From Candidatus Melainabacteria bacterium (GTDB lineage: Bacteria; Cyanobacteriota; Vampirovibrionia; 2-02-FULL-35-15), in assembly GCA_023250205.1 (NCBI GenBank), contig JAHFBE010000003.1:1-56450 (forward strand): a DNA stretch of 56,450 nucleotides, in the 5' to 3' direction. The notes under the pieces were generated by a model. The model was not told the DNA's origin. It did not search any database and was given only the letters and a program-made list of their open reading frames with translations. Both the position numbers and the translations under genes were made by a program. Shown here piece after piece: positions 1 to 8,317 of the stretch (position 1 is the stretch's first letter; every line of letters begins with the position of its first letter).

Positions 1-827
1 GTTTTGGAACAAAAGCAGGTCTTGCTCCAATGCACACATGGCTTCCTGATGCCCACAGTGAAGCTCCTACACCTGTAAGTGCCTTGTTATCCGGAGTACT
101 TTTAAAGTGTGCTTTATATGGAATTATCCGATTTGCAATTTTAATTAATCTTGCTGTTGACAGTAATTTTACAAGTCATCTTCTCTTGTTCTTTGGGCTC
201 TTGTCAATAATAGTTGCAACCCCGTTTATTTTAGTTCAGAAAAACATTAAACGTCTTTTGGCATACAGTTCTCTTGAACATATTGGAATAATAACAACTG
301 GTCTGGCATTTGGAAATTCGCTTTCTGTTTTTGGTGCATTTATTCACATTATTAATCACGCAATTGTTAAATCACTTATGTTTTTTACGGCAGGAAATAT
401 TTCATTAAAATTCCACACTAAAGATATGGATCATATTAAAGGAGCAGCTCAAATTGTTCCGCTTAGTGCTTTTGCTCTTATTCTTGGAGGGCTTGCGCTT
501 GCAGGTGCACCACCATTTTCAATTTTTATAAGTGAGTTTTACATTCTTGCCGGTGGAATTAAAGAAAATCATTTAATTGCAAGCGGACTGATTATTTTTC
601 TCCTTACAGTAATCTTTGGAGGGCTTCTTTATCATTTCCTTAAAATTACTATAGGACCGATTAATGGTCTAACAAATCTTTCTAACGCACAACTTGGAAG
701 GTCAAGCAACTTTCCTGTTCTTATATGTCTTTTTGTTATTGTTTTACTTGGAGTTTCAATACCATCTCCACTATTCCGTCTTGTAAATGAAGCAGTAAAA
801 ATATTTAGCATGGGAAATACGATATGA
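1..827 (+). CDS. hyfF: Hydrogenase-4 component F / NuoL-M-like antiporter-type membrane subunit (5'-truncated)
   Basis: The frame is open from the window start: FGTKAGLAPMHTWLPDAHSEAPTPVSALLSG and KRLLAYSSLEHIG are proton-conducting subunit motifs; very hydrophobic; overlaps the next gene by 4 nt. Confidence 0.9.
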   Translation, partial: FGTKAGLAPMHTWLPDAHSEAPTPVSALLSGVLLKCALYGIIRFAILINLAVDSNFTSHLLLFFGLLSIIVATPFILVQKNIKRLLAYSSLEHIGIITTGLAFGNSLSVFGAFIHIINHAIVKSLMFFTAGNISLKFHTKDMDHIKGAAQIVPLSAFALILGGLALAGAPPFSIFISEFYILAGGIKENHLIASGLIIFLLTVIFGGLLYHFLKITIGPINGLTNLSNAQLGRSSNFPVLICLFVIVLLGVSIPSPLFRLVNEAVKIFSMGNTI

Positions 828-2440
828 AGATATTAGTTGAAAAAGATATAGAATTTTTAGTCGAATGTCTGAAAAAGACACTTAATGTTAATGTCAAGAT
901 AAATGGAGTTAACCATCTTCAAATTACCCTTGAAAAGAACTATTTACTTTCTGCTGTAGAATATATTTCTCAAAATTCTGAATTCAATGCACATTTAATT
1001 ACAATGCTTGCATCTGATGAAAGGGAGTTAAACGGGAACTTTAAACTCTATATAATATTTTCAGTTATTCAGCCAAGGACAATTCTTACTCTTGAAATTT
1101 TATTAGATAAAGATAAACCTTCTTATCCAGCCCTTTCTGAAAAAATCCCTTCGTTAAACTGGCATGAAAGAGAAATTCATGATTTGTTTGGAATTGTACC
1201 CGATGGAATTGAATTAGATCCGTTGGTATTGCACAGAGACTGGCCTCATGGAAAATATTTTCCTCTGCGAAATGATTTTCTGCTTAATAAGCAGTTTCCA
1301 TTTGGAGAAGTTAATCATGAATTTAGTCAACCTCATGGAGAAGGTATGCACCAGATTGCAGTAGGACCTATTCATGCAGGAATAATTGAGCCTGGGCATC
1401 TTAGATTTTGTGCAATTGGGGAAGAGATTTACAAATTTGATGCTCAGCTTTTTTATACACATAAAGGGCTTGAAAAAATGGCTTATGGAAAAAGTGTTGA
1501 AGAAGTTCTTGTTCTTGCAGAACATACCTGTGGTATGTGTGCTTTTTCTCATTCAAGTGCATTTTGCCAGGCAGTTGAAAATCTAGGAGGTATTAAAATT
1601 CCCCGGAGAGCGGCTTACCTTAGAACAATTGGCCTTGAAATGGAGAGAATTAGCAATCATATGGCAGATCTTATGGCTATCTGTTCTGCTGGTGGACTTA
1701 GTTTTGGGGCTAGTCATGCCGGAAGACTTAGGGAATTTCTAATGGGACTAAATCATGACTTTGCAGGACATCGTTTTTTTCGAAACTTAAATACAATTGG
1801 CGGATTGAAAAGAAATATTTCTGATGAGTTCTGTAAACTACTCCTGGAAAAACTTGAAAAATTTAAACCTCAATTTCAGGAATGGGAGCAACTAATAACA
1901 AATAATGATAGTCTTCTTGACAGACTTGAGCTTACAGGATTTTTATCTAATGAAAATGGACTTAAACTTGGGATTGTTGGTCCTGCTGCAAGAGCTTCAA
2001 ATATTGACAGAGATGTTAGGCGTGATTATCCTTACTTTGCTTATGAAGATTATGTTGTTAAAGTGCCGATATATGAAGATGGAGATGCTTTAGCACGCAT
2101 GCAGGTCAGAATTGATGAAGTATATGAATCTTTAAGGCTTATTAAAAATTTAATTAACAATCTTCCTTCTGGAAGCATCTTAGATCATAATTCTCTAAAA
2201 TACCCTATTCATACGCCTTCTATATCAATAGTTGAATCTGCCAAAGGTGAACTGTCCCATTTTATTATGCTTGGTGAAGAAAATAAAGTTTTTCGCTGGC
2301 ATGTAAGAAGTGCTTCATATATGAACTGGAGAGGAGTAGTACAGGCAACTATGGGGCAGGACAGATTTAAAAATATTGTTCCAGATGGACCACTTGTAAA
2401 TAAAAGCTTTAATTTATGTTATGCCTGTGTGGATAGGTAA
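824..2440 (+). CDS. hyfG: Group 4 [NiFe]-hydrogenase-like / Ehr large subunit (NuoC+NuoD-like fusion, HycE/HyfG type)
   Basis: WHEREIHDLFGI, VGPIHAGIIEPGHLRF, YTHKGLEK, EHTCGMC, ELERIxNH-like EMERISNH, C-terminus NKSFNLCYACVDR. Confidence 0.9.
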   Translation: MKILVEKDIEFLVECLKKTLNVNVKINGVNHLQITLEKNYLLSAVEYISQNSEFNAHLITMLASDERELNGNFKLYIIFSVIQPRTILTLEILLDKDKPSYPALSEKIPSLNWHEREIHDLFGIVPDGIELDPLVLHRDWPHGKYFPLRNDFLLNKQFPFGEVNHEFSQPHGEGMHQIAVGPIHAGIIEPGHLRFCAIGEEIYKFDAQLFYTHKGLEKMAYGKSVEEVLVLAEHTCGMCAFSHSSAFCQAVENLGGIKIPRRAAYLRTIGLEMERISNHMADLMAICSAGGLSFGASHAGRLREFLMGLNHDFAGHRFFRNLNTIGGLKRNISDEFCKLLLEKLEKFKPQFQEWEQLITNNDSLLDRLELTGFLSNENGLKLGIVGPAARASNIDRDVRRDYPYFAYEDYVVKVPIYEDGDALARMQVRIDEVYESLRLIKNLINNLPSGSILDHNSLKYPIHTPSISIVESAKGELSHFIMLGEENKVFRWHVRSASYMNWRGVVQATMGQDRFKNIVPDGPLVNKSFNLCYACVDR

Positions 2441-2447
2441 ATTTTTT

Positions 2448-2999
2448 ATGCTGAATATTTTAAAAATGATAGCCAAGACAAAAATTGTGACAGAGAAATC
2501 TCCTCTAATTGAGTCAATTGATTTTGAAACTTTGCAAAAAGATCTATCAAGGTTTGAGAAATTAGATTATGAGGTTAAAAGAGCGCTCAGTAAATCATTG
2601 ACTATTCGTCATTTGGATAGTGGTTCTTCTAATGCCGAGGAAGCAGAACTTCTTGCCCTTTCAAACCCTGTTTATGATATTACTCGCTTTGGAATTGATT
2701 TTACAGCTTCACCACGTCATGCAGATGTGCTTACTATAAGTGGTCCTGTTACAAGACAGTTAAAAATTGCAATGGACAGAACTTATAATGCAATGCCCTA
2801 TCCAAAAATTGTCGTAGCAGTTGGTGATGGTGCATGCAATGGTTCTGTTTATCAAAATACATATGCTTGCCTGGGAAGAGTAGATCAATTTTTACCCGTT
2901 GATATTTATATTCCGGGAGATCCACCAACACCAGAGGTAATTTTAAAAGGACTTTTAATGTGTAAATTGATTTTAATTGAAAAGAAGGGTAGGTTGTGA
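2448..2999 (+). CDS. hyfI: NuoB/HycG/HyfI-like small subunit lacking the canonical Fe-S cysteines
   Basis: RHLDSGSSNAEEAEL, FGIDFTASPRHADVL, GPVT, VAVGDGAC, IYIPGDPPTP. ATG 2448, just after the hyfG stop, is preferred over 2421. Confidence 0.85.
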   Translation: MLNILKMIAKTKIVTEKSPLIESIDFETLQKDLSRFEKLDYEVKRALSKSLTIRHLDSGSSNAEEAELLALSNPVYDITRFGIDFTASPRHADVLTISGPVTRQLKIAMDRTYNAMPYPKIVVAVGDGACNGSVYQNTYACLGRVDQFLPVDIYIPGDPPTPEVILKGLLMCKLILIEKKGRL

Positions 3000-3589
3000 A
3001 AATGGATAAAAAAGATAGTTTATTAAAAGTTGATGTCTTGTCAATCGGATTATTTGGATTGGCAGTGGGTGCTTTGACTCTAGGACTTGTGCAGATTGGA
3101 ATTATTCCACATAATGACGATCTGGCTATATCAATCATCTGTCTTATTTTTGGTGGTATTGTTCAGATTATAGCTGGCATGATTGATGTAAGGTATCATG
3201 ATCAGCTTGGTGGAACAGCATTGACTATGTATGGATTTTACTGGACAACTGTTTTTACAGTTAAGATTCTTGGTTTAGTAGAGGGATTTCACTGGGATAA
3301 TGTGCTTTTCCTGCCACTTGTGGTAATCTATGCAATGTTTTCAGCGATAATGATTTACTTAACGGGTCATAAATCCAAGGCTTTAATGATACTTCATGTT
3401 TTCATTACTGTAGTTTTTACTATTGATATTTTTATTAAATTAAATTATCCATTTGAATATTATGCAGGTATAGATCATATTATTATTGGTCTTCTTGCAC
3501 TTTATCATGCAATGGTTACACTGATAAATAAATTCACTGGCAAAGCAGGATTTTTATTAGGAAACCCTCCATTCAAATTCAGGAATTAA
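2996..3589 (+). CDS. satP: GPR1/FUN34/YaaH (SatP-like) acetate/carboxylate channel
   Basis: IGLFGLAVGALTL, FGGIVQIIAGM, GTALTMYGFYW; about 6 hydrophobic helices; overlaps hyfI by 4 nt. Confidence 0.75.
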   Translation: MKMDKKDSLLKVDVLSIGLFGLAVGALTLGLVQIGIIPHNDDLAISIICLIFGGIVQIIAGMIDVRYHDQLGGTALTMYGFYWTTVFTVKILGLVEGFHWDNVLFLPLVVIYAMFSAIMIYLTGHKSKALMILHVFITVVFTIDIFIKLNYPFEYYAGIDHIIIGLLALYHAMVTLINKFTGKAGFLLGNPPFKFRN

Positions 3590-4136
3590 TTATATAAAGT
3601 TTATTGTCTTCTATGTTATATAACATAGGCACAAAGATAATCGGAGGGTATTTCTCTTTTAATCTTTTACTTTCACTTACTATAAATTCTTTTTCATTCT
3701 CTATTTCAAAGAAGGGAGCAAAAGAATTAAAGTGATTTTCTGCCTGTTCTTTAGTCCAGCTAGCATTTTTAACAAGTCCATCTACAAATTTTTCTTTTTT
3801 GCTGGTTAGATTTACCATTCCACAGTTTGTATGAGCTATAAGTGCTACAAATTTAATATCAGCAAAGCCAATTGCAAAGGAGAGCTTGAATTCATTACCA
3901 GTAATCCTTGCTCCTGCCGTCCTTAAGATATATGAAAATTTACCAGGTATGTTAAGCTGCTTTCTATTATCCATGCACATTACTATAGCCATCTGTGCAG
4001 TATCGTAATCTTTAAATGGCATTTCAAGATTATGATATTTAAGTAAATCAGCAATTGGAGTATTTAAAAGATTATTAGGAATATCTTTTTCATTACAGAT
4101 ATCTATAAGCTGATATTTTGAAGTAACATCTTTCAT
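3579..4136 (-). CDS. Beta-class carbonic anhydrase
   Basis: Zn-binding motifs CMDNR (CxDxR) and HTNC (HxxC), plus RTAG. Confidence 0.85.
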   Translation of the reverse strand: MKDVTSKYQLIDICNEKDIPNNLLNTPIADLLKYHNLEMPFKDYDTAQMAIVMCMDNRKQLNIPGKFSYILRTAGARITGNEFKLSFAIGFADIKFVALIAHTNCGMVNLTSKKEKFVDGLVKNASWTKEQAENHFNSFAPFFEIENEKEFIVSESKRLKEKYPPIIFVPMLYNIEDNKLYIINS

Positions 4137-4150
4137 AATAAATTAAAACA

Positions 4151-4558
4151 TTATGCCCAGAAAGAAATAATCTCTGAATAAGTAGATAAAAGCTCGCTGT
4201 TTATAGCTAACTGATAGCCTATTAAATGAAGTGCACTGATAAGTACCTTTGAAATCTTTTTTGACTCAGTAAGATAGTAATATACTTCTTTACCCTTTCT
4301 TTCTTCAACAACAAGCTTATTTACTTTTAAAAGTGAAAGATGTTGTGAAACATTTGACTGGCTTATGTATAGTTCATCTTGTATTTGATGAACGTTTAAA
4401 CTTTTTTTCTTTTTTAATAACCATAAAATTTTAACCCTTATTGGATGTGAGAGTATTGAAAATAAATTCGAAACAGAATTAATTTGTTCCTCAGGGGTTT
4501 TATATACAACTCTTTTTTTACTTTTCATTATGGGTTCTATTATATCAGCTAGTAACAT
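4151..4558 (-). CDS. ArsR/SmtB family transcriptional regulator
   Basis: LFSILSHPIRVKIL...SQSNVSQHLSLLK...EERKGKEVYY winged HTH. Confidence 0.9.
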   Translation of the reverse strand: MLLADIIEPIMKSKKRVVYKTPEEQINSVSNLFSILSHPIRVKILWLLKKKKSLNVHQIQDELYISQSNVSQHLSLLKVNKLVVEERKGKEVYYYLTESKKISKVLISALHLIGYQLAINSELLSTYSEIISFWA

Positions 4559-4595
4559 ATTCTAATATTCGAATGTGTTAAAATCTTCAGGTATC

Positions 4596-6131
4596 ATGAA
4601 TCTAAATCGTAAAAATTACTCTATTGACAAATTTAAAGCTGACTTTTTCTCATCTATAGTTGTATTTCTTGTTGCGCTTCCTTTATGTCTTGGAATTGCT
4701 ATAGCTTCAGGAATGCTGCCAGCAGCAGGTTTAATATCTGGAATTATTGGTGGAATAATTGTTGGTAGTTTATCTGGTTGCCCTCTTCAAGTAAGCGGAC
4801 CAGCTGCTGGTCTTGTAGGTATTATTTATGAAGTAATTCAAGAACATGGTATTGAAAGTCTTGGAGCTATTGTTTTGTTTGCGGGTGTTCTACAAATAGT
4901 TGCCGGTATTTTAAAACTTGGACCATGGTTTCGAGCTGTTTCTCCACCAGTTATTCATGGAATGCTTGCTGGTATTGGAATCCTTATATTTTCCAGTCAG
5001 TTCCATGTAATGGTTGATGATCTGCCAAAAAGTTCTGGGATTGAAAATATACTATCTCTTCCTACCAGCTTTCTTAAGGGAGTAACTCCGCTTGATACTA
5101 CCAGCCATCATTTAGCTGCATTAATTGGATTAATAACTATTTCCAGCATGATTCTCTGGAGATTTATGCCAAAGAAGTTAAAAACTATACCTTCTGCTTT
5201 AGTTGGAGTCTTGATGACTACTTTATTAGCACATTACTTACATTATCCTATTAAGCATGTTTTAGTTCCTGAAAATATTTGGAGTGCTATTAAACTTCCA
5301 TCATTAGAAAGTTTTTCTTGTCTTTTAAGCTGGGAGGTATTGGTTGAAGCTTTAACAGTGGCATTTATTGCTAGTGCTGAGACTTTGCTTACTTCCTCTG
5401 CAATAGATAAAATGAAATCAAGTCACAGGACAAATTATAATAAAGAAATTATTGCTCAGGGTATTGGTAATTCTTTAGCGGGCTTAATTGGAGCAATTCC
5501 AATAACAGGTGTTATTGTACGTAGTGCAGCAAATGTTACTGCAGGTGCTAAGACACGCGCTTCAGCAGTCTTTCATGGAGTATGGATCTTGTTGTTTGTT
5601 GCTTATTTTTCTCGGTTACTAGAAATGATTCCTACGGCTGCCCTTGCTGCTGTTTTAGTTTATACAGGGTATAAATTAGTAGATTTAAATGCAATAAAAA
5701 ATCTAGCTAAGATTGGTAAGAGTGAAATAGTTATATATTTTGTAACATTATCTGCCATTGTTATGACTAGTCTGCTTGAAGGAATTCTTATTGGAATAGT
5801 ATTTTCTGTGATTAAACTACTCTATGATTTCTCAAAACTGGAATTAAGAATTGAAAAAGAAAAAGAGGAAAATATAGTTCATTTCTATATTAATGGAAAT
5901 GCTACTTTTATTAATCTTCCAAAGTTTGCTGATGCTCTGGAAAGTATTGTTCACGGGAAAGAAGTTTTTGTTCACTTTGAAGGACTTGTTCATATTGATC
6001 ATGCAAGTCTGGAATTTATAATGAACTGGGAAAAGCAATATGAGTCTGCAGGGGGAGTTGTTTCAATTAGATGGAATGAACTTGAAGCAAAGTTTAACAA
6101 ATCAAAAGCTATTAGTCGATCAAAAGTTTAA
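4596..6131 (+). CDS. SulP/SLC26 anion (bicarbonate/sulfate) transporter with short STAS-like tail
   Basis: VVFLVALPLCLGIAIASG, QVSGPAAG, EIIAQGIGN, TGVIVRSAAN. Start is either ATG 4596 or GTG 4575. Confidence 0.92.
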   Translation: MNLNRKNYSIDKFKADFFSSIVVFLVALPLCLGIAIASGMLPAAGLISGIIGGIIVGSLSGCPLQVSGPAAGLVGIIYEVIQEHGIESLGAIVLFAGVLQIVAGILKLGPWFRAVSPPVIHGMLAGIGILIFSSQFHVMVDDLPKSSGIENILSLPTSFLKGVTPLDTTSHHLAALIGLITISSMILWRFMPKKLKTIPSALVGVLMTTLLAHYLHYPIKHVLVPENIWSAIKLPSLESFSCLLSWEVLVEALTVAFIASAETLLTSSAIDKMKSSHRTNYNKEIIAQGIGNSLAGLIGAIPITGVIVRSAANVTAGAKTRASAVFHGVWILLFVAYFSRLLEMIPTAALAAVLVYTGYKLVDLNAIKNLAKIGKSEIVIYFVTLSAIVMTSLLEGILIGIVFSVIKLLYDFSKLELRIEKEKEENIVHFYINGNATFINLPKFADALESIVHGKEVFVHFEGLVHIDHASLEFIMNWEKQYESAGGVVSIRWNELEAKFNKSKAISRSKV

Positions 6132-8317
6132 TCTCTAAATCCTTCTTTAAGATTATTTGCAAATTTTAATATATTGTTCTTTATTTCTTCAGTAACTTTT
6201 TTTGCATTTTCAACAGCATCTTCAAGAGCTTCTTGTTTAGACTTCTTAGCTTCTTCCATTTGTTTTTGCTCGGCTTTAGCTTGTTCTTCAGCAGCTTTCT
6301 TTGCATTTTCAATAGCTTCTTGTTTAGACTTCTCAGCTTCTTCCATTTGTTTTTGCTCGGCTTTAGCTTGTTCTTCAGCAGCTTTCTTTGCATCTTCAAT
6401 AGCTTCTTGTTTGGATTTCTCAACTTCTTCGGCTTGTTTTTGCTCAGCTTTAGCTTGTTCTTCAGCAGCTTTCTTTGCATCTTCAATAGCTTTTTGTTTG
6501 GATTTCTCAACTTCTTCAGCTTGTTTTTGTTCAGCTTTAGCTTGCTCTTCAGTAGCTTTTTTCTTGGCTTCTTCCATAGCATTTTTTATTGCTTCTATGG
6601 CTTGTTTGATATTTCCTTGATTGTTACTAGCAGTGTTTAAGACTTCTGGTATTGAAGGAAGAGGATTAGCCATTATGACTGGCTGAGTAGTGGTAGTAGT
6701 TGCAGGAAGAGGATCAGCCATTATGATTGGTTGAGTGGTAGTAGTAGTTGCAGGAAGAGGATCAGCCATTATGATTGGTTGAGTGGTAGTAGTAGTTGAA
6801 GGAAGAGGATCAGCCATTATGATTGGTTGAGTGGTAGTAGTAGTTACAGGAAGAGGATCAGCCATTGTAGTTGGTTGAGTTATTGTGTTTGCAGGAGAAG
6901 AAGAACTGATATTTGTTATTACTGGACTTGGGGATGGATTAAAATTAATTACAGTTGGGATTTGGATAGTGTCTGTTGAAGTTGTTGAAGCTGTAGTAGT
7001 TGGCTTATTAGATGCATTATTATTTGAAGGACTATTGGACATAGAGCCTCCAGTATCCAGATTTAAAACAACATTATTATCAGAGGTAATGCTTCCTGTA
7101 GGTGCAATATATAAACCTCTAAGAATAGGTGGATTTTCCAGATCATTTGTAGTTAATCTTATTCTTAATTGAATATTACTGCTTGGAGCTATATGAAAAT
7201 TTTGAAATGTAGGAGTTCCATCTCCAAAAGTCTCTATGGTGGATTTAAGTTTGTTTTGTTTGTCTTTTTCTGCAGAATAGATTAGGATATTTTGTTTATA
7301 TGATTCAGTGGTGTATAAACCTAGTTCACAGCCATTTAAGCAGAGACTCATATCAGGGTTTAAATAAAACTCAAGTCCATTGCTTCCCTTTGGTCCTGCC
7401 ATTCCTTGTAAAACTTTGAAATTATAAAAATCTTTATTTTTTAGTGATAATGGGAACTCATAACCAGTTGATGTTGCATACTTAATCATGCCTACACTTA
7501 ATTGAACTAAATCATCATTTTCTGATTCTTCTTTTGATCTTGGCGACCATATTACTGTACTGGAATCAACTCTTTGAGACCAGGTAGGTGCACTTACTTT
7601 CTCAGGTCCAACATAGGTAATCCTTAAATCACTTTCTCTTCTTGGTTCACTCCAAAAAATGCCACTGATCGCTGCTTTAGAATTGTCCTGTGGAGCTATT
7701 TCAATTGTTAGTGTTCCAACTGAGCGAGGATCGGGTGATTTTACTAATAAGTTTAAATAACAACCAACTTTAAATTTTGTATTTTGAATATAAGTAATAT
7801 CTCCTAGAGCACTATTTGCATAAGATAGTTTTAATTTAATTTGTTCAGCAGGATTATTAATAACAAAGGGATCAAAATATAAATTTAATGGGATCCAGGT
7901 AATGAAATCATTATTGTTTTGTAAATCTATCATTATGGAAAGAGTTTCTCCATCAAGTGAAGAAGATAAATAATATTTATTTCTTTCACCATTTTTAGAA
8001 GCACTTTCTGGAGTACTTATACTAATTGAGCTGCTTTCCTGAATAACACCGGAGTAAGTTAGGTTTGTTATATATGGAGGTAATTTTGTTTGCGTATTTG
8101 ATGGGTCAGCAAGCCAATAATATGAATACTCTGTACTCCATGCTCCGTTTAAATCACAATTTGTTTTTGGGGCTGATTCCTTTATATATGATGGATTTAG
8201 GTAAGTAGCATTTGAAATTTCTGGGGCAGTTTGAGCTAATACTTGGCCAGTACAAACTGCTGTAAGCAATAAAAGAATGTATAAGATATTTAAGTTTGAC
8301 TTTGTTTTAGTTTGCAT
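6128..8317 (-). CDS. Secreted hypothetical protein with a Thr/Pro-rich linker and a TolA-like Lys/Glu/Ala coiled-coil tail
   Basis: 729-aa ORF with an N-terminal signal-like segment (ILYILLLLTAVCTGQVLA) and two internal repeat arrays. Confidence 0.75.
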   Translation of the reverse strand: MQTKTKSNLNILYILLLLTAVCTGQVLAQTAPEISNATYLNPSYIKESAPKTNCDLNGAWSTEYSYYWLADPSNTQTKLPPYITNLTYSGVIQESSSISISTPESASKNGERNKYYLSSSLDGETLSIMIDLQNNNDFITWIPLNLYFDPFVINNPAEQIKLKLSYANSALGDITYIQNTKFKVGCYLNLLVKSPDPRSVGTLTIEIAPQDNSKAAISGIFWSEPRRESDLRITYVGPEKVSAPTWSQRVDSSTVIWSPRSKEESENDDLVQLSVGMIKYATSTGYEFPLSLKNKDFYNFKVLQGMAGPKGSNGLEFYLNPDMSLCLNGCELGLYTTESYKQNILIYSAEKDKQNKLKSTIETFGDGTPTFQNFHIAPSSNIQLRIRLTTNDLENPPILRGLYIAPTGSITSDNNVVLNLDTGGSMSNSPSNNNASNKPTTTASTTSTDTIQIPTVINFNPSPSPVITNISSSSPANTITQPTTMADPLPVTTTTTQPIIMADPLPSTTTTTQPIIMADPLPATTTTTQPIIMADPLPATTTTTQPVIMANPLPSIPEVLNTASNNQGNIKQAIEAIKNAMEEAKKKATEEQAKAEQKQAEEVEKSKQKAIEDAKKAAEEQAKAEQKQAEEVEKSKQEAIEDAKKAAEEQAKAEQKQMEEAEKSKQEAIENAKKAAEEQAKAEQKQMEEAKKSKQEALEDAVENAKKVTEEIKNNILKFANNLKEGFRD
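6216..6564 (-). repeat. Four intragenic 87-bp repeats (KKAAEEQAKAEQKQ[A/M]EExEKSKQEAIEDA)
   Basis: The 29-aa unit appears 4 times in the translation; the DNA copies are near-identical. Confidence 0.9.
6654..6880 (-). repeat. About five intragenic 48-bp repeats (QPIIMADPLPxTTTTT)
   Basis: ggaagaggatcagccattatgattggttgagtggtagtagtagtt recurs every 48 nt. Confidence 0.9.

Follow-up and report, generated by a model that had tools for sequence, protein, structure and literature searches.

Near the start of a 56,450-nucleotide stretch of a Candidatus Melainabacteria genome (positions 1 to 56,450 of contig JAHFBE010000003.1; the whole stretch is called the window here), the last gene of a hydrogenase-4-like operon encodes a small subunit of the NuoB/HycG/MbhJ type that has none of the four Cys ligands of a [4Fe-4S] cluster. 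Loss of these ligands is a lineage-wide trait under purifying selection, and chance, decay and error are excluded as its cause. We are highly confident that the subunit has no plausible [4Fe-4S] site and can be called Fe-S-free. For the complex as a whole we favor, with a confidence that is better than even but well short of firm, the explanation that a cluster-free structural small subunit serves a complex that is not a hydrogenase and that would move ions independently of redox chemistry. The source is a metagenome-assembled genome (MAG) of 83 contigs and 2.09 Mb that is 86.5% complete; the window, which has a G+C content of 33%, starts where its contig (C26) starts.

Ligand columns of the small subunit

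The small-subunit gene begins at ATG 2448, the start point that its homologues also use; an ATG further upstream, at 2421, overlaps the preceding gene. The product belongs to PF01058 (Oxidored_q6; 1.2e-23 and 83.7 bits against a Pfam cut-off of 27) and reaches 116.1 bits against the NCBIfam NuoB model NF005012, whose cut-off is 116. Its best sequence matches among solved structures are MbhJ of the P. furiosus membrane-bound hydrogenase (MBH; 6CFW, chain 6cfw_J, 1.2e-29) and HycG of the E. coli formate hydrogenlyase (7Z0S, chain 7z0s_G, 5e-27), and the ligand columns, C1 to C4, were assigned by HMMER alignment to these two proteins. MbhJ and HycG have Cys at all four aligned columns, which we take, from knowledge of the family, to be the ligands of the proximal [4Fe-4S] cluster, whereas the window protein has Cys at none of them. 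The features are as follows.

2448..2999, + strand: NuoB/HycG/MbhJ-like small subunit, an intact open reading frame (ORF) of 183 aa, [4Fe-4S] ligands absent
2622..2642, + strand: GSSNAEE in place of GSCNGC[ED], spanning C1 and C2 in the alignment to MbhJ/HycG
2628..2630, + strand: codon tct, S61 at C1 (canonical GSCNGC[ED])
2637..2639, + strand: codon gag, E64 at C2 (canonical GSCNGC[ED])
2823..2837, + strand: GDGAC (VGDGAC for IGAC), with G128 at C3 (codon 2829-2831)
2913..2927, + strand: PGDPP for PGCPP, with D158 at C4 (codon 2919-2921)

The original prediction had read the three Cys motifs as GSSNAEE, GDGAC and PGDPP in an otherwise intact ORF that keeps its fold, and had inferred, as one of two possibilities, an Fe-S-less subunit. 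The residue-level alignment shows that the motifs were read accurately, and the other two statements also stand. An AlphaFold2 model calculated from a 77-sequence alignment has a mean predicted local distance difference test score (pLDDT) of 87.8 and a predicted template modeling (TM) score of 0.83, and its pLDDT is at least 90 over all three former ligand loops. Superposed with Foldseek on MbhJ 6cfw_J, the model gives a root mean square deviation of 1.5 Å and a TM-score of 0.88; HycG is likewise among the best fold matches. The small subunit is therefore confidently predicted to have the NuoB fold.

The Cys of GDGAC, C130, lies two residues after the C3 column. In canonical relatives, a Cys at this +2 position accompanies the ligand, as in GDCGC of a protein from a Nitrospirae MAG (locus L020) and GACAC of Desulfosporosinus. 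Because the true ligand and the +2 Cys stand side by side in these proteins, C130 reads as an ancestral non-ligand residue and not as a ligand that has been displaced.

A protein search of 5.8 billion sequences returned 2,645 matches at 1e-10 or better, and we examined the best 120 (46-100% identity). A common signature, GS[C/S/N/T]NAEE ... GDGAC ... PG[D/N]PP, is present in 112 of these best 120. The 112 homologues with the signature are 50-93% identical to the window protein; their named sources are Melainabacteria/Vampirovibrionia, Obscuribacterales or MAGs labeled as cyanobacteria. Among the 112, position 64 (C2) is Glu without exception (112/112), position 128 (C3) is Gly in 107 and Ala in five, and position 158 (C4) is Asp in 90, Asn in 21 and Ser in one. 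Position 61 (C1) is the most variable, with Cys in ~60% and Ser, Asn, Thr, Pro or Phe in the rest. C130 is retained in 111 of the 112 and D127, which is specific to the clade, in 110. Two further Cys residues, C141 (2868-2870; 108/112) and C172 (2961-2963; 110/112), are also specific to the melainabacterial clade and are absent from the CPR (Candidate Phyla Radiation), archaeal and Bacillota relatives. We considered C141 and C172 as a paired new site, and they are ruled out as an obligate pair, since each is lost without the other: in a few members one of them is replaced (by Asn, or by Ile/Tyr) and the partner Cys is kept.

The ratio of non-synonymous to synonymous substitution rates (dN/dS, Nei-Gojobori) of the small subunit is 0.13 against its closest DNA relative (L102; 87% amino acid identity, dS 0.64) and 0.17 against L012. 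The neighboring subunits range from 0.10 to 0.18, and housekeeping genes on the same contigs from 0.03 to 0.07. The original prediction had argued for selection rather than decay and had allowed that the substitutions might be unique to this assembly. The clade-wide signature, the dN/dS values and the confident fold bear out the former, and with 112 homologues sharing the signature the substitutions are clearly not unique.

Large subunit, maturation genes and descent

The window opens inside the operon, with the following features upstream of, and within, the small-subunit gene.

3..827, + strand: HyfF/NuoM-like antiporter subunit, C-terminal 274 aa (PF00361, 3.5e-48; NCBIfam hydrogenase-4 subunit F, 2.5e-88)
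824..2440, + strand: fused NuoC-NuoD/HycE-like large subunit of 538 aa (7z0s_E HycE, 6.5e-84; PF00329, PF00346, PF00374)
1523..1540, + strand: N-terminal NiFe motif H234-T-C236-G-M-C239, both Cys kept, the Arg of RxCGxC replaced by His
2243..2245, + strand: K474 in ESAKGE, at the position of the pendant active-site Arg of the PRG motif (HycE aeaPRGddihw, window vesaKGelshf)
2417..2428, + strand: C-terminal NiFe motif C532-Y-A-C535, both Cys kept
2484..2504, + strand: IVTEKSP, N-terminal stub of a NuoI/HycF-type ferredoxin domain, from comparison with the Desulfosporosinus orientis small subunit (L009)

The N-terminal part of HyfF lies at the end of another contig of the same assembly, C50, which ends with, in order, genes for an extracytoplasmic function (ECF) sigma factor, an anti-sigma factor, HyfB-, HyfC/NuoH- and HyfE-like proteins and the N-terminal half of HyfF. 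In intact relatives the order is hyfB-C-E-F-G-I with no further gene inside, and the small subunit is the last of the six. Neither the two contigs nor the intact relatives contain a gene for HyfA, HyfH, HycF or a NuoI-type ferredoxin (Fer4) in the operon. Charged residues of the membrane subunits can be read from the sequences with reference to the motifs established for the antiporter-like subunits of complex I. HyfB and HyfF keep the Glu of transmembrane helix (TMH) 5, the Lys of TMH7 and TMH8 and the Glu of TMH12, and the motifs of TMH7, TMH8 and TMH12 are visible in the part of HyfF that lies in the window. HyfC keeps the NuoH-type acidic motifs and HyfE its membrane Glu residues.

Of 401 genomes sampled from the class, 16 carry the operon according to whole-genome six-frame searches. 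The window's family, with 12 genomes, contributes 11 of these carriers, and the others are scattered members of three further families; 13 of the 16 are at least 90% complete. The operon is dispensable and patchily distributed even within a genus, because G002, a 98%-complete genome of the same genus as the window's, has neither any part of the operon nor the gene for the AceTr-type channel described below.

The large subunit ends in ...CYACVDR without a C-terminal extension. We compared 66 melainabacterial cluster representatives, with pairwise identities down to 43%, with 54 Bacillota proteins of the 4f-like type. All four NiFe Cys are present, at each position, in 66/66 and 54/54 sequences, respectively. 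The two hydrogenase arginines behave differently. At the RxCGxC position the clade has His in 53, Asn in 12 and Gln in one, with Arg in none of the 66, and at the PRG position it has Lys in 65 and Arg in one; the Bacillota proteins have Arg at both positions in 54 of 54. The pendant active-site Arg is strictly conserved in [NiFe]-hydrogenases, and its role has been described (PMC10430524).

HypD (PF01924), HypC (PF01455) and HypA (PF01155) were each found in none of the 16 carriers, HypE, HypF and HypB not being part of this search, and two control genomes of the same class (G013 and G049) were positive for all three. HypD occurs in 15 other genomes of an 81-genome sample, and in most of these 15 a longer, canonical gene for the small subunit is present as well. 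The Fe(CN)2CO moiety requires HypC and HypD, and since the carriers lack both, the four Cys of the large subunit very probably do not hold the canonical NiFe(CN)2CO cofactor.

Outside Melainabacteria, the nearest large subunits are those of Desulfosporosinus, Desulfitobacteriaceae, Phosphitispora and other Bacillota, at 42-47% identity. The six-gene Desulfitobacterium hafniense cluster ACL22288-93 has been assigned to [NiFe] group 4f (PMC9888536), a previously uncharacterized group for which the genes are written ehfA-F (bioRxiv 10.1101/2025.08.29.672306). The group 4f (Ehf) locus of D. orientis, L009, has six genes in the identical order, the four NiFe Cys and a large subunit that ends in CxDR with no extension. 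Its small subunit is longer, 236 aa, because a domain that carries two CxxCxxCxxxC motifs is joined to the N-terminal side of the four-ligand Oxidored_q6 domain. Aligning 'KTGIVTTEYP...CLQCGKCEAVCP...CIFCGYCVEVC' of L009 with 'KTKIVTEKSP' of the window shows that the window protein keeps about the first 17 residues of the ferredoxin domain and that both cluster motifs are absent. Unlike group 4f, the melainabacterial clade lacks the ferredoxin core, has replaced the proximal ligands and both Arg, and has no Hyp genes that we could find. Because the proximal ligands, the ferredoxin motifs and a Fer4 gene are all absent, the complex as read from its genes has no Fe-S ligand set anywhere.

In the large-subunit tree, the clade (support 100) falls inside the canonical set (99 in the Shimodaira-Hasegawa-like approximate likelihood ratio test, SH-aLRT), beside Bacillota 4f proteins of the Desulfosporosinus/Desulforamulus type (88). 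The small-subunit tree, calculated with the four ligand columns removed, agrees with this placement (97/85). The complex thus appears to derive, within Melainabacteria, from a group 4f [NiFe]-hydrogenase.

Proposed function and neighboring genes

The complex is likely not a hydrogenase, because it would have no electron path and could not build the NiFe(CN)2CO centre; it would then neither reduce protons nor oxidize H2. In the explanation that we favor, the small subunit would have a structural role, as an adaptor between the large subunit and the NuoH-like membrane subunit that keeps the former in place, with the former cluster pocket filled by Glu64, Asp/Asn158 and Asp127. Ions would be translocated without redox input in the manner of Mrp antiporters, as proposed for cofactor-free Ehr complexes, possibly in cooperation with a SatP-like carboxylate channel encoded next to the operon (perhaps along with carboxylate flux through it) and under the control of an ArsR-type regulator. 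Ion translocation is the more tentative part of this proposal, and we hold it somewhat less probable than even.

Several observations weigh against this explanation. C130, C141 and C172 of the small subunit are conserved at 96-99%, and two of the three are specific to the clade. The invariance of the four large-subunit Cys indicates that the complex still has a function that depends on thiolates, and these residues are left unexplained if its role is purely structural. A redox-free complex would have no obvious energy source, and the role as an ion translocator is deduced from residue conservation and by analogy to Mrp and the cofactor-free Ehr of CPR. In addition, the assembly splits the operon between contigs C50 and C26, and the absence of Hyp proteins rests on 16 assemblies, all genomes being MAGs.

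The alternative that survives best assigns the four large-subunit Cys to another, Hyp-independent metal centre, such as a small Fe-S cluster or a mononuclear Ni, Fe or Zn site. This centre would be the working part of the complex, serving catalysis or sensing without redox chemistry and gating the translocation of ions. We consider this alternative rather unlikely. It agrees with the favored explanation on the small subunit, where the wiring would no longer be needed, and differs on what drives the complex. The Cys are kept in every representative while both flanking Arg are replaced in concert across the clade (R to H/N/Q and R to K), HypA, HypC and HypD were not found in the carriers, and the CPR and archaeal lineages have lost all four Cys, so that their retention is not inevitable. 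However, four-thiolate sites typically hold structural and not catalytic metals, no gene for a metallochaperone or for the handling of a substrate is conserved next to the operon, and the ArsR regulator is free of Cys and shows no evident motif for metal sensing. The corresponding evolutionary scenario, in which the Fe-S clusters and the Hyp pathway were discarded and the four thiolates came to hold a new Hyp-free metal centre that gates ions together with the SatP-like channel, is doubtful to the same degree.

A good deal less probable is a new metal site, or an unusual cluster, with O and S donors in the small subunit itself, made up of E64, D127, D/N158, residue 61, C130 and perhaps C141. 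The near-invariance of E64, D127, C130 and C141 would suit such a site, and acidic replacements recur elsewhere, as TEGCD in CPR and as D-x-D-C-N in archaea and Dehalococcoidia. The variation at position 61 (C/S/N/T/P/F) and position 158 (D/N/S) is nevertheless poor conservation for ligands, C130 stands beside a real ligand in canonical proteins, and C141 and C172 can each be replaced without loss of the other. The original prediction had offered a site formed by the Ser/Glu/Asp replacements and the nearby Cys as one possibility, and this part of it is not supported, with only E64 invariant among the replacements and C130 ancestral.

It is very improbable that the complex still works as a hydrogenase or another H2-dependent enzyme, matured by unrecognized factors and passing electrons or hydride directly to a substrate or partner. 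The four NiFe Cys and the clustering of the large subunit with genuine group 4f enzymes would fit, whereas the missing HypA, HypC and HypD, the change of the pendant Arg to Lys, the loss of the L1 Arg and the lack of any Fe-S cluster site encoded in the operon speak against it. Sequencing or assembly error or recent pseudogenization, for which the fragmented, incomplete MAG and the split operon might be cited, has a negligible probability given that the signature recurs in 112 independent sequences from many samples and that the ORF is intact, its dN/dS low and its fold confidently modeled.

The genes that follow the small subunit in the window are listed below.

2996..3589, + strand: channel gene of the AceTr/SatP (GPR1/FUN34/YaaH) family (PF01184, 1.9e-11; NCBIfam AceTr_1, 5e-17, above cut-off; SatP 5ys3, 4.8e-10)
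3579..4136, - strand: divergent beta-carbonic-anhydrase-like gene with CxDxR and HxxC zinc motifs (PF00484, 25.1 bits, cut-off 25.7)
4151..4558, - strand: Cys-free regulator with an ArsR/SmtB-type helix-turn-helix (PF01022, 1.2e-9)
4575..6131, + strand: SulP-family anion transporter with a STAS domain (PF00916, 1.6e-65)

The AceTr gene, whose likely start is ATG 3002, overlaps or abuts the stop of the small-subunit gene. In six of the nine loci compared at the family level, as well as in L022, L024 and L102, a SatP/AceTr-like gene abuts the operon. With 80-85% amino acid identity across the family loci, above that of the complex subunits, and a dN/dS of 0.04-0.08, its product is the best-conserved of the locus. 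An orthologue was found in eight of 81 related genomes, all of them carriers and always beside the operon, and in none of the 69 non-carriers. One copy, in G009, contains an in-frame TGA. The ArsR-type gene lies directly upstream of hyfB in most family-level loci (L010, L011 and L013-L018); in the window it lies downstream, on the opposite strand. Apart from these two, the flanking genes (Bro-N, DUF2490, AbiEii and zf-HC2/LTXXQ) vary between the loci.

The beta-carbonic-anhydrase-like and SulP genes were considered as the CO2/bicarbonate part of a conserved module, and this was rejected because they are absent beside the operon in eight family-level loci. L102 has no block of beta-carbonic-anhydrase-like, ArsR and SulP genes (3579-6131 in the window) at this place, and because its AceTr gene runs straight to rpe, the block between AceTr and rpe in the window is a local insertion or rearrangement. 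A similar arrangement of a 185-aa protein and ArsR was found in one near-identical ENA contig only.

Some further observations concern the surroundings of the operon. In the window's genome, the ECF sigma and anti-sigma genes stand directly upstream of hyfB (G000, contig C50:31726-32997), and in G001 (L011) genes for an anti-sigma zf-HC2 protein and an LTXXQ/Spy-like protein follow the operon. These neighbors are hints of envelope- or ion-stress control of the operon. Beyond the SulP gene, positions 6128-8317 of the minus strand hold an ORF of 729 aa whose hydrophobic N-terminal segment resembles a signal peptide. It also contains TTTTQPIIMADPLP repeats in tandem and an extended repeat that is rich in Glu and Lys and resembles a coiled coil (AEEQAKAEQKQ.EE.EKSKQEAIE.AKKA); the long ORFs read from the other strand are spurious.

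Comparison with Ehr and other complexes

A [NiFe]-hydrogenase is usually recognized by the Cys motifs of its large subunit, and by this test the melainabacterial clade passes as group 4f. A putative group 4f enzyme has indeed been reported in one Melainabacteria genome (PMC6349859). Because this lineage has no Fe-S relay, no Hyp maturases and neither of the two hydrogenase arginines, a "group 4f hydrogenase" call within it probably does not imply H2 metabolism, a point that matters when hydrogen-based metabolism is reconstructed for the sister lineages of Cyanobacteria. The operon also offers a compact six- or seven-gene system in which to ask what a complex-I-like peripheral arm does without electron flow and what the strictly kept, Hyp-free four-Cys site binds.

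We classified 85 loci (one genome per species and other loci) by the ligand columns of both subunits, which gave four states.

State 1: small-subunit ligands kept, NiFe Cys kept; Bacillota, Myxococcota, Acidobacteriota and others, some with fused Fer4 motifs
State 2: small-subunit ligands kept, NiFe Cys lost (SSSG); Nitrospirota, Alphaproteobacteria, Acidihalobacter
State 3: small-subunit ligands lost, NiFe Cys lost; CPR/Patescibacteria and archaea/Dehalococcoidia
State 4: small-subunit ligands lost, NiFe Cys kept; the melainabacterial clade and three Chloroflexota loci

In state 3 the small-subunit motif is TEGCD (CPR/Patescibacteria) or D-x-D-C-N (Methanosarcinales, other archaea and Dehalococcoidia), and the large-subunit columns read S-M/A-S-G or S-E-S-G (CPR and archaeal Ehr). 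Ehr proteins of CPR without metal-binding cysteines have been described (PMC7304191), consistent with this state. The three Chloroflexota loci of state 4 (L036, L040 and L068) encode small subunits of 282-309 aa with one Fer4 motif left and partial proximal ligands (ECECD, DCECD and DADCD). The adjacent large subunits have the full set of four NiFe Cys, and these loci may represent a second lineage in the process of losing its Fe-S relay. Locus L020 (Nitrospirae MAG JADGAE010000004.1, 10001-10513) holds a small-subunit gene of 170 aa with all four Cys, 52% identical to the window protein, which stands alone amid unrelated genes, with no hyf-like partners.

Ehr (energy-converting or Ech-hydrogenase-related) complexes have been published from Geobacter (EhrA-D, L and S; PMC7894505), from CPR (PMC7304191) and from Margulisbacteria and Melainabacteria (PMC6349859), and are defined by a large subunit without NiFe ligands (PMC6349859, PMC4378227). 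The melainabacterial operon (C50 and C26, and relatives) resembles them as a six-gene membrane cluster of the EhrA-D/L/S type with no NuoI-like or NuoEFG-like input module, whereas its large subunit, unlike that of Ehr, strictly keeps all four NiFe Cys. Some Ehr, in Nitrospirota and Alphaproteobacteria, show the opposite combination, with the small-subunit Cys kept and the large-subunit Cys lost. Ehr small subunits without these cysteines are already present in CPR and archaea, which makes the melainabacterial combination a further variant. The replacements of C2 by Glu, C3 by Gly and C4 by Asp are identical in the melainabacterial and CPR-type clades. Both best trees place the melainabacterial clade and the CPR Ehr clade with TEGCD apart, and a tree that joins the two is not rejected by approximately unbiased (AU) tests (small subunit, p 0.22; large subunit, p 0.26), so that shared and convergent origins of these replacements are both compatible with the data. 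The melainabacterial clade may represent an intermediate between a hydrogenase and a cofactor-free Ehr, in which the Fe-S wire was lost before the NiFe ligands.

Like the complex, Mrp-type cation/proton antiporters lack a redox cofactor and have two antiporter-like subunits in which the Glu/Lys set is conserved, a likeness that we use as a working analogy only; to our knowledge, Mrp antiporters have no NuoH/NuoD/NuoB-like cap. MBH and formate hydrogenlyase, which contain the closest solved relatives of the small subunit, work with a NuoI-type ferredoxin subunit (MbhN and HycF, respectively). With NuoB/Nqo6/PSST of respiratory complex I, which carries cluster N2, the small subunit has in common the fold, the family PF01058 and its place beside NuoD-like and NuoH-like partners. 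Unlike complex I NuoB, it lacks the N2 ligands and stands in a hyf-type and not a nuo context; a separate, canonical NuoB-like gene is present on contig C37 of the same genome. In complex I, Mbx and classic Ehr the NiFe ligands have been lost and the small-subunit cluster kept, and the melainabacterial complex shows the reverse of this pattern.

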